The position numbers and the translations under genes are program-made. A DNA stretch of 5,727 nucleotides from a virus. Lineage: Duplodnaviria > Heunggongvirae > Uroviricota > Caudoviricetes. The notes below the pieces were generated by a model. That model made no database searches. It worked only from the letters and a program-made list of their open reading frames with translations, and was not told the DNA's origin. Of this stretch, positions 1 to 585 are shown piece by piece (position 1 is the first letter of the stretch; each line of letters opens with the position of its first letter). Location of the stretch: the IMG/VR virus record IMGVR_UViG_2547132272_000015. One strand, given 5' to 3'.

Positions 1-1
1 G

Positions 2-169
2 CGCTATTACCGCGCCTTAATGGCTGGTGGGGTACGCTACGACCTGAAAGGCCAGCCGTGCGGCGAGGTGACACCACAGGAACAACAGGACGCAGAAACG
101 CGGCTGATGGCGCTGAATGAGAAGCGCAAACGTCAGCGCCGGGCAGCAAAGGAGAAAACAGGCGCATGA
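2..169 (+). CDS. 3' end of an upstream gene, 5'-truncated by the window edge; unknown product with a basic Lys/Arg-rich C-terminus
   Basis: Frame is open from the window edge to TGA at 167-169. That stop overlaps the ATG at 166-168 of the next gene (ATGA), suggesting translational coupling. Region is visibly GC-rich. Confidence 0.5.
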   Translation, partial: RYYRALMAGGVRYDLKGQPCGEVTPQEQQDAETRLMALNEKRKRQRRAAKEKTGA

Positions 170-453
170 TTCACGACAGCAAAGCAGAAGCACTGGAAGC
201 GCGTGGCCTGTACCGCAGAGCGGCGGCGCGGTGGGCTGAGGTCATCATGCTGGCGAATGATGACAAGGCACGGGAACAGGCGGCAAAACGTCGCGCGGAA
301 TGTATCCACAAGGCAGCACGCCCACCAGCACGGCAGGATAATTTCGGGGAGGTGCGCGAAACCATCAGCCGGGCACATGCCGGGATGGGATTACATCAGC
401 CCAATGGTAAGGCATTCAGGAAATACCCTGGATCGAAAAATTGCAGTCAGTGA
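166..453 (+). CDS. small regulatory protein, PerC/Pch-family-like transcriptional activator (tentative)
   Basis: 95-aa ORF with AAGGAG at 149-154 upstream of the ATG. Product has the pattern SKAE.LE.RGLYRRAA.RW...M, then C-x-H-K-A-A-R-P-x-A-R and a C-terminal AFRKYPGSKN, which I recall as PerC-like; this is from memory, not a search. Stop is followed immediately by a terminator hairpin. Confidence 0.6.
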   Translation: MIHDSKAEALEARGLYRRAAARWAEVIMLANDDKAREQAAKRRAECIHKAARPPARQDNFGEVRETISRAHAGMGLHQPNGKAFRKYPGSKNCSQ

Positions 454-456
454 CGG

Positions 457-482
457 AGGCCGGGATTTTTCCCGGCTTTTTT
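457..482 (+). terminator. rho-independent terminator: stem GCCGGG / CCCGGC, 6-nt loop, T6 tail
   Basis: Inverted repeat 459-464 / 471-476 followed by TTTTTT at 477-482, starting 4 nt after the stop codon at 451-453. Confidence 0.7.
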
Positions 483-490
483 GTGCCAGT

Positions 491-529
491 AAAAAGCCCG
501 CAGCCAGAAGTGTTGCGGGCTTTGTTTTT
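491..529. terminator. second hairpin, candidate bidirectional terminator (A-run, 8-bp stem, T-run)
   Basis: AGCCCGCA at 495-502 pairs with TGCGGGCT at 514-521 around an 11-nt loop. It is flanked by AAAA upstream and TTTGTTTTT downstream. Confidence 0.5.
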
Positions 530-585
530 CAGGTGATTGAAGTCAATGGGAAGAACGCGATCATCATGCGTTATCGTTTCATAAA

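Follow-up and report, generated by a model that had tools for sequence, protein, structure and literature searches.

What kind of transcription unit ends in two strong hairpins directly behind a gene for a PerC-like regulator, and what kind of element carries it? The question arises from the first 530 nucleotides (nt) of the window, a 5,727-nt stretch of viral DNA (IMG/VR record IMGVR_UViG_2547132272_000015, Caudoviricetes) that was analysed at its full length. A first-pass annotation had described here a small PerC-like protein, coupled to an upstream gene, insulated by tandem terminators and possibly inserted at a mosaic junction. Positions 1–530 are best explained as the 3' end of a short regulatory operon, with perC as its last cistron, in a phage satellite of the phage-inducible chromosomal island (PICI) type; we regard this explanation as quite probable. 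The gene itself is an ordinary, already annotated one and had been described correctly, and PerC alleles in Escherichia coli PICIs are already in the literature (PMC6092414, PMC11773190). What is added here is the PICI-type carrier, an exact breakpoint at 484/485 between hairpins of different modules, and the recurrent coupling of perC to a gene for a FinO-domain protein. Neither the junction position nor the coupling alters current concepts.

The open reading frame (ORF) at positions 166–453 (plus strand, ATG start) encodes 95 amino acids (aa) and is, on profile evidence, an ordinary PerC-family regulator gene. The PerC/Pch likeness noted in the first-pass annotation is confirmed by a hidden Markov model search, in which the product scores 111.8 bits against Pfam PerC, PF06069 (E = 2e-32), far above the curated gathering score of 22.6 and over essentially the whole domain (profile positions 1–89 of 90). 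It also matches phrog_994 (E = 3e-35). Other family characters are present: a length within the usual range of about 90–100 aa, the N-terminal core D-x3-E-x2-E-x2-G-x-YRRA-x2-RW, and a horizontally transferred carrier, here a 14.4-kb island with an integrase and attachment (att) repeats. Residues D4, E8, E11, G14, Y16, R17, R18, A19, R22 and W23 are invariant in an alignment of 44 sequences, and the residues of this core are also common to PchE and to PerC of enteropathogenic E. coli (EPEC). The IMG/VR contigs hold 80 further perC copies. Among 5.8 billion proteins searched, all 116 database relatives (116/116) carry PF06069, and those with a named source come from Escherichia, Salmonella or Citrobacter. 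A near-identical protein, WP_000581047.1, bears the RefSeq name 'PerC family transcriptional regulator'; no NCBIfam model matches the window protein. Its AlphaFold model has four helices (pLDDT 80). A Foldseek comparison of this model with the PDB returned nothing better than E = 2, with TPR- or MIT-like helical hairpins only, and a PDB sequence search with the PerC profile gave no match. The lack of a structural or PDB sequence relative fits the description of Pch proteins as having no homology to known DNA-binding proteins (PMC4764244), and with no significant structural neighbour the predicted fold was dropped as a lead to mechanism. In some related loci (L004, at 14421–14723; also L065, L069 and L072) a second PerC paralogue is encoded roughly 4 kb downstream of the copy that is coupled to ProQ; it is divergent, with 100 aa and 38% identity to the window protein.

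Translation of perC is tied to the gene before it. Positions 1–169 (plus strand) hold the last 55 codons and the stop of a gene whose beginning lies beyond the left edge of the window. The 55-aa fragment matches the ProQ/FinO family profile PF04352 (E = 3.2e-9; 37.2 bits, cutoff 27), and the full-length homologue in locus L001 (176 aa, annotated as a ProQ/FinO family protein) matches with E = 5.7e-24 and 84.6 bits, so that the upstream gene, which the first-pass annotation had left to be named, is identified. Under NCBIfam cutoffs this homologue scores 63 against 136 for FinO and 58 against 127 for ProQ. Because it passes PF04352 yet misses both, the upstream protein is a member of the family and an orthologue of neither. 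Its TGA stop (167–169) lies within ATGA (166–169), which gives the 4-nt overlap with the perC start that had been read earlier from this sequence. A Shine-Dalgarno-like AAGGAG (150–155, plus strand), placed inside the upstream gene, precedes the ATG at 166 by 10 nt. The same ATGA overlap is found in 60 of the 61 loci where a ProQ/FinO gene precedes perC, a count that overstates independent support, as many of the 60 are close relatives. Another 19 perC copies follow an ssb gene at a gap of 10–85 nt. The proQ-perC pair keeps its position beside three replicase types (RepA helicase, DUF927 and primase) and many cargo sets. The overlap and the internal AAGGAG support the prediction that perC is translated by coupling to the ProQ/FinO gene. 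We found no discussion of this pairing in the accessible literature. It occurs in one widespread lineage, the module being carried by approximately 3–5% of complete E. coli genomes, and raises the testable idea that an RNA chaperone and a nucleoid-level regulator are linked. The idea of ProQ/FinO and PerC as obligate partners was rejected, since loci L092 and L093 have other small ORFs after ProQ. These ORFs (L092, 4160–4408; L093, 4117–4479; 82 and 120 aa) overlap in place of perC and have no family match.

Two strong hairpins, both with T-tracts, follow within 70 nt of the perC stop; the earlier reading had placed two strong hairpins within 80 bp of the ORF. Hairpin 1 (T1, 459–482, plus strand) forms an intrinsic-terminator-like end of the proQ-perC unit. 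It has a 7-bp stem, GCCGGGA/TCCCGGC (459–465/470–476), a TTTT loop (466–469) and a run of six T residues (477–482). Its minimum free energy (MFE) is -18.3 kcal/mol (z = -3.7 against shuffles), and a separate scan gave -13.7 kcal/mol for the core alone. A simple terminator scanner did not list T1, which is kept with perC in several lineages. Hairpin 2 (T2, 493–530, plus strand) consists of AAAAA, a 12–13-bp stem-loop and then TTTGTTTTT. The fold at 493–523 has 12 pairs, with AAAAA before and GTTTTT after it (MFE -20.9 kcal/mol, z = -3.9), and the scanner called it. Read on the minus strand, T2 is weaker (-16.7 kcal/mol, z = -3.4), with a 10-bp stem and an 11-nt loop followed by TTTTTAC, and the scanner did not call it there; the proposal that T2 could act in both directions is thus possible by pattern, but its reverse half is the weaker one. 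Terminator-like sites number three in the first 1 kb, against 1.0 +/- 0.9 in shuffles, and both hairpins show the intrinsic-terminator pattern of a GC-rich stem-loop with a T-tract. The transcript from proQ-perC most likely ends at T1, a putative terminator. Non-homologous, independent terminators stand after perC in the PchE, L004, L050 and L075 lineages, and a second A-tract/T-tract hairpin recurs in some PchE-type loci. A GC-rich hairpin GGGGTGGCCT...GCGCGGAAAAAGGC followed by a T-run was also seen at about 10576–10625 in L004 and some 30–100 nt after the perC stop in L085/L089; this hairpin downstream of perC is common to two otherwise different lineages. An Rfam search of the whole window gave sub-threshold matches over the hairpins (ncr1175, 32 bits against 60; Thr_leader, 23 against 55), which were set aside as a generic tandem-hairpin resemblance.

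The two hairpins have different histories. A recombination (mosaic) breakpoint between the proQ-perC module and a variable downstream region lies at 484..485. Among 89 related loci compared, the perC-containing alignment ends at 483–485 in 25, directly after the T1 T-tract and before T2. Other breakpoints fall at 772 and at approximately 2191–2199, and nearly all loci resume homology at about 4926, the start of a helix-turn-helix (HTH)/small-terminase-like gene. Of 5,426 complete E. coli genomes, 267 contain positions 1–453 but only 39 contain positions 531–1500. The 86-bp segment with T2 (485–570) is found at 55 places in 39 genomes, as is 531–1500, and both L011-type and L002-type loci lack it. 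T1 abuts the conserved promoter region in the L011 type; in the L002 type, other genes spanning about 1.8 kb occupy the junction point. As T2 shares the counts of the right-hand DNA and is missing from these two types, it is assigned to the variable right-hand module, and T1 to the proQ-perC module. The tandem terminators are thus a product of the mosaic junction. A mosaic junction had been suspected from composition; it is comparative genomics rather than composition that bears it out. The point directly after T1 is, by these alignments, a recombination hot spot at which satellites carry different DNA. A cargo-exchange hot spot at a defined position right after the perC terminator may help researchers who study satellites.

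The carrier can be described from complete genomes. The window is 100% identical to IMG/VR contig L010 and 94–97% identical to chromosomal segments in 14 complete E. coli genomes. In strain TUM1881 it lies, at 96.9% identity, between abgR and smrA, as the right half of an integrated island. The order of this island is integrase, AlpA, AntA/B antirepressor, Icd-like, DUF4222 and RepA-type helicase genes, then an AT-rich iteron-like gap, one hypothetical gene, ProQ/FinO, PerC and the remaining genes of the window. Pfam matches include Phage_integrase with Arm-DNA-bind_3, AlpA (PF05930, E = 3e-18) and, for the RepA-type helicase, AAA_25. An exact 25-bp direct repeat, GGTGTAGTTAATGGTGTAGTTAATT, marks the ends, its two copies being 14,416 bp apart between abgR and smrA. 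Sister elements use a Thr tRNA gene adjoining proA, or rcnR. The island thus has an integrase at one end, and it encodes an AlpA-type regulator and a replicase of its own; its genes point the same way, att direct repeats flank it at a specific site, and its size (about 14.4 kb) is within the range of about 10–15 kb. Its virion and lysis set is incomplete: only DUF2213, chaperone-like, tape-measure/transglycosylase-like and TerS/HTH-like genes are present, and no capsid, portal, large terminase or lysis gene was found among the island and window genes by Pfam, phrog or annotation. The int-alpA-replicase order, the size, the att repeats and the partial virion set together make up the architecture of Gram-negative PICIs. 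On this gene content the carrier is classified as an integrated PICI-type E. coli phage satellite, with transfer by a helper predicted. The first-pass annotation had named plasmids and prophage-like elements as carriers of the family; the carrier here is a horizontally transferred element, but neither a plasmid nor a complete prophage. The AT-rich gap after the replicase gene (L001, 18430–18842; 32–34% GC) contains repeated GTGAG(T)A(A)ATG-like units. It is probably the replication origin of the satellite, and probably also the site of the promoter of the proQ-perC unit.

Several known systems resemble this arrangement in part. Gram-negative PICIs such as EcCICFT073 (Fillol-Salom et al. 2018) share with the island its size, the int-alpA-replicase order, att direct repeats, an AT-rich iteron region after the replicase and the lack of a full structural or lysis module. 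For the window element, helper dependence and transfer are putative, and the coupled ProQ/FinO-PerC pair is not described in the accessible literature on Gram-negative PICIs. An experimentally mobilized E. coli PICI, EcCIMP1 of strain MP1, which is mobilized by phage Kapi1, has a PerC-family gene of its own, EcCIMP1_025. This element carries int, AlpA, AntA/B, Icd, DUF4222 and a DUF927 primase, as well as helper-like virion genes that include a lytic transglycosylase. Unlike perC of the window, EcCIMP1_025 lies downstream of the block of virion genes and not directly after the replication module, and no ProQ/FinO gene is annotated in EcCIMP1. The closest parallel to the unit is pchE of E. coli O157:H7 Sakai (ECs_1588, prophage-like element Sp7/O-island 51), in an island with int, alpA and primase genes. 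PchE is a PerC-family protein of 90 aa that is 50% identical to the window protein over its full length. Like perC of the window, pchE closes a short operon that follows the replicase, and an intrinsic terminator comes 7 nt after its stop. Rapid amplification of cDNA ends placed the start of its transcript, which also covers ECs1586 and ECs1587 (ssb), after the primase gene (PMC7369912). The gene before pchE is ssb, with a 10-nt gap, whereas the window has ProQ/FinO with an ATGA overlap; and the Sakai island has a full capsid and terminase set where the window island has tail-chaperone and tape-measure-like genes instead.

The namesakes of the family are more distant in setting. PerC of EPEC (EAF plasmid pMAR7, perABC) belongs to the same Pfam family, is about 44% identical to the window protein over residues 2–88 and is likewise encoded by the last gene of a small regulatory operon. 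It differs in being plasmid-borne and in lying behind perA and perB at a distance of 49 nt, and a search of the 125 nt downstream of it gave no terminator-like hairpin. Activation of LEE1, in the LEE (locus of enterocyte effacement), is a shown feature of EPEC PerC and not of the window protein. PchA, PchB and PchC of the lambdoid prophages of enterohaemorrhagic E. coli (EHEC) are of the same family. P0051, of the NCBI 'PchABC family', is 63% identical to the window protein but longer (122 against 95 aa). The genes of the Pch proteins sit on prophages that carry effectors, and these proteins regulate the LEE, a role not supported for the window allele.

To the right of the breakpoint a separately regulated, activator-type promoter is predicted at 577–628 (plus strand). 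This region holds direct repeats of TTTCA-N5-TGCAA (577–591 and 607–621) and a -35/-10-like TCGTCA-16-CATAAT (601–628) with a poor -35. The motif occurs three times in the window, the third copy at 1217–1231, against 0.12 expected. Three diverged lineages retain its first two copies upstream of a small ORF (655–828, plus strand, 57 aa), which is the first gene after the junction and is itself conserved across lineages. The 57-aa product has no Pfam or phrog family match; by eye it is ribbon-helix-helix-like.

A general scheme for the unit can be proposed. (i) By analogy with Sakai pchE, the proQ-perC unit would start in the AT-rich region after the replicase and end at T1. (ii) To the right of 484/485, a T2 segment of about 80 bp would be followed by the promoter region at 577–628 and then by hijack or cargo genes. 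(iii) T1 and T2 would jointly separate constitutive or early proQ-perC transcription from the separately controlled downstream module. (iv) PerC most likely works like PchA, binding AT-rich DNA covered by H-NS and remodelling silencing complexes. PchA, a small helical protein without a classical DNA-binding fold, relieves silencing by H-NS, StpA and Hha and binds AT-rich DNA, and is the best available family model (PMC4764244). (v) From these analogies we infer a nucleoid-level regulator, which plausibly acts on surface and motility regulons of the host, as PchE does, and/or on the AT-rich promoters of the satellite itself.

Several observations weigh against this scheme. Termination at T1 is a prediction from sequence. 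Among the 59 ProQ-PerC loci with enough downstream sequence, sorted by a threshold of our own, 19 have two strong hairpins as the window does, 18 have one and 22 have no strong terminator after perC. The hairpin is degenerate in the L002 type and has lost its T-tract in the L011 type. Tight insulation is therefore not a conserved requirement. Covariation in the hairpins is thin, with two compensatory pairs in 10 distinct sequences: one in T1, where several G-U changes were also counted, and one change from G-C to A-U in T2, in L024. As 12 of 500 shuffles did equally well, the claim of selection on hairpin structure was dropped. ProQ/FinO genes can precede unrelated small ORFs, so the pair is not obligate. 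A search of the AT-rich region upstream of proQ-perC identified no promoter with confidence. EcCIMP1_025 acts as a repressor and is placed elsewhere in its island. Finally, the mechanism of PerC is extrapolated from PchA; the 63% identity given above is that to P0051.

Could perC, or proQ-perC as a whole, instead be a moron, a recent, autonomously transcribed, GC-rich foreign unit lodged between the replication and packaging modules? The complete island averages 49% GC and has its maximum, 59%, in the proQ-perC segment, a value attained by only 2.5% of 453-nt windows, and the GC content at third codon positions of the ProQ gene (0.66) is the highest in the island. The compositional step on which the first-pass annotation relied is real, with 58.9% GC in 1–453, 36.3% in the intergenic region 531–654 and 48.4% in 531–5727, about 59% left against 48% right, but it is weak evidence of foreign origin. 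PerC contains 19% Ala and 13% Arg, and amino acids together with island codon usage predict 55.7% GC for its gene (57.5% observed) and 54.6% for the ProQ gene (58.5% observed). Most of the excess thus comes from Ala/Arg-rich proteins, and the drop after 453 is an AT-rich intergenic region; the ORF directly after the junction (655–828) is again 56% GC. Through this comparison GC content was rejected as evidence of foreign origin. A terminator at the 3' end of the unit, the own promoter of the Sakai pchE unit after its primase gene and the variable presence of PerC described among EcCIMP1-like elements (PMC11773190) would also suit a moron. A promoter scan, however, found no promoter-like site in 1–165, and the perC start overlaps the upstream stop; without its own promoter, perC is not a moron by itself. 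Nor is it polymorphic in the manner of a moron: its association with proQ persists in 60 of 61 loci amid changing flanks, and the constant position of the pair beside differing replicases and cargo is the behaviour of conserved backbone whose right side varies. We consider a moron unlikely, and the earlier proposal fails for perC alone, which is coupled to proQ and has the variable DNA downstream of it. Less probable still is a virulence activator like EPEC PerC or EHEC PchA/B/C, switching on ler/LEE1 and type III secretion. Family membership and the identities to pMAR7 PerC (44%) and to 'PchABC family' P0051 (63%) are compatible with that role. So is the statement that some PICI-coded PerC homologues activate the LEE (PMC6092414). 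Against it, the closest studied relative of the window protein is PchE (50% identity), a regulator of curli, flagella and adhesins (PMC7369912). PchD and PchE, both PICI alleles, did not activate LEE1 (PMC11773190, citing Porter 2005, and thus second-hand), the PICI alleles of EDL933 and CFT073 left LEE1 fusions unaffected, and EcCIMP1_025 silenced or repressed LEE1 (PMC11773190). Moreover, the proQ-perC module is present in pig enterotoxigenic E. coli (ETEC), in commensal strains and in O104:H4 2011C-3493, carriers that are not known to have the LEE. As the nearest PICI alleles are inert on LEE1 or repress it, the activation of virulence regulons that the first-pass annotation associated with the family is not supported for this clade, and by analogy a role as LEE activator is unlikely for the window allele. 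The gene should be annotated as a satellite PerC allele; it is no evidence of a virulence activator, and finding it should not be taken to mark a LEE regulator.

Two further rivals, each about as improbable as the virulence role, concern the hairpins. The hairpins may be RNA ligands of the co-encoded FinO-domain protein, setting mRNA stability or downstream read-through. Intrinsic terminators that end in a 3' tail are recognized by FinO/ProQ domains, and in many ProQ ligands the terminator stem follows an A-rich stretch (PMC9977716), a layout that T2 matches exactly; the FinO-domain gene, moreover, is tightly coupled to perC and lies some 300 nt upstream. The description nonetheless fits any intrinsic terminator, T2 moves with the right-hand module and not with proQ, T2-like A-tract terminators also follow pchE in loci without a ProQ gene (L081-L084), and many ProQ-PerC loci lack strong hairpins. 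A related and speculative proposal, to which we give similarly little credence, joins the FinO-domain protein and PerC as a dedicated, translationally coupled pair of regulators in enterobacterial phage satellites. By binding one or both terminator hairpins at the end of its own message, the FinO-like protein would determine how stable perC mRNA is or how much read-through crosses the junction; PerC, for its part, would relieve silencing of the AT-rich promoter that has the TTTCA-N5-TGCAA repeats. The two would make up an RNA-plus-nucleoid switch by which the satellite passes between residence and expressing its hijack module. We found no specific evidence for such a switch and some against it. 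The other rival has T2 as a working bidirectional terminator that stops minus-strand antisense RNA or a convergent cargo transcript coming from the right. The upstream A-tract, the downstream T-tract and the reverse fold (-16.7 kcal/mol, z = -3.4) permit this; L050 has a clearly minus-oriented terminator facing T1 at the same position, and some sister elements have minus-strand cargo downstream, for example SIR2 in L005. In the window, however, all credible genes are on the plus strand, the promoter scan gave no minus-strand promoter-like site in 1–1000, the minus-strand ORF at 416–631 that spans both hairpins is unsupported, and the reverse hairpin is both weaker and uncalled by the scanner. 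The preferred reading remains that of a proQ-perC operon end at T1, abutted by a right-hand module to which T2 belongs.

The rest of the window supplied some minor observations. The minus-strand ORF 416–631 corresponds to L001 20416–20625, a RefSeq-annotated 69-aa 'hypothetical protein' that spans both hairpins; annotated in one genome and with no support, it is almost certainly a spurious call. PADLOC found no defence-system match for any window protein. Two adjoining ORFs, 868–1452 and 1517–2200, match the 545-aa phage family phrog_6216 in permuted order, the former at positions 405–545 and the latter at positions 115–328. The latter also matches DUF2213 and, weakly, a prohead protease, and the two ORFs may be a split, rearranged protease/scaffold-like gene. 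A 205-aa ORF (2197–2814) is overlapped by a -1 frame open at 2571–2879, with a slippery T_TTT_TTT at about 2577. This layout (2197–2879) is that of a phage tail-assembly chaperone with a predicted G/GT-type programmed frameshift. The next protein, of 680 aa (2879–4921), has tape-measure and transglycosylase profile matches. Homologues of this chaperone/tape-measure region (91% nt identity) lie directly upstream of baseplate genes in phage vB_Apl-pPE4. The satellite appears, from these predicted genes, to carry its own chaperone and tape-measure pair. Right after the HTH/small-terminase-like gene (4927–5454), the sequence (CGCG)AAAAAGTGTCAA stands in four direct copies at 5460–5670; these repeats could be a packaging site or another protein-binding site.

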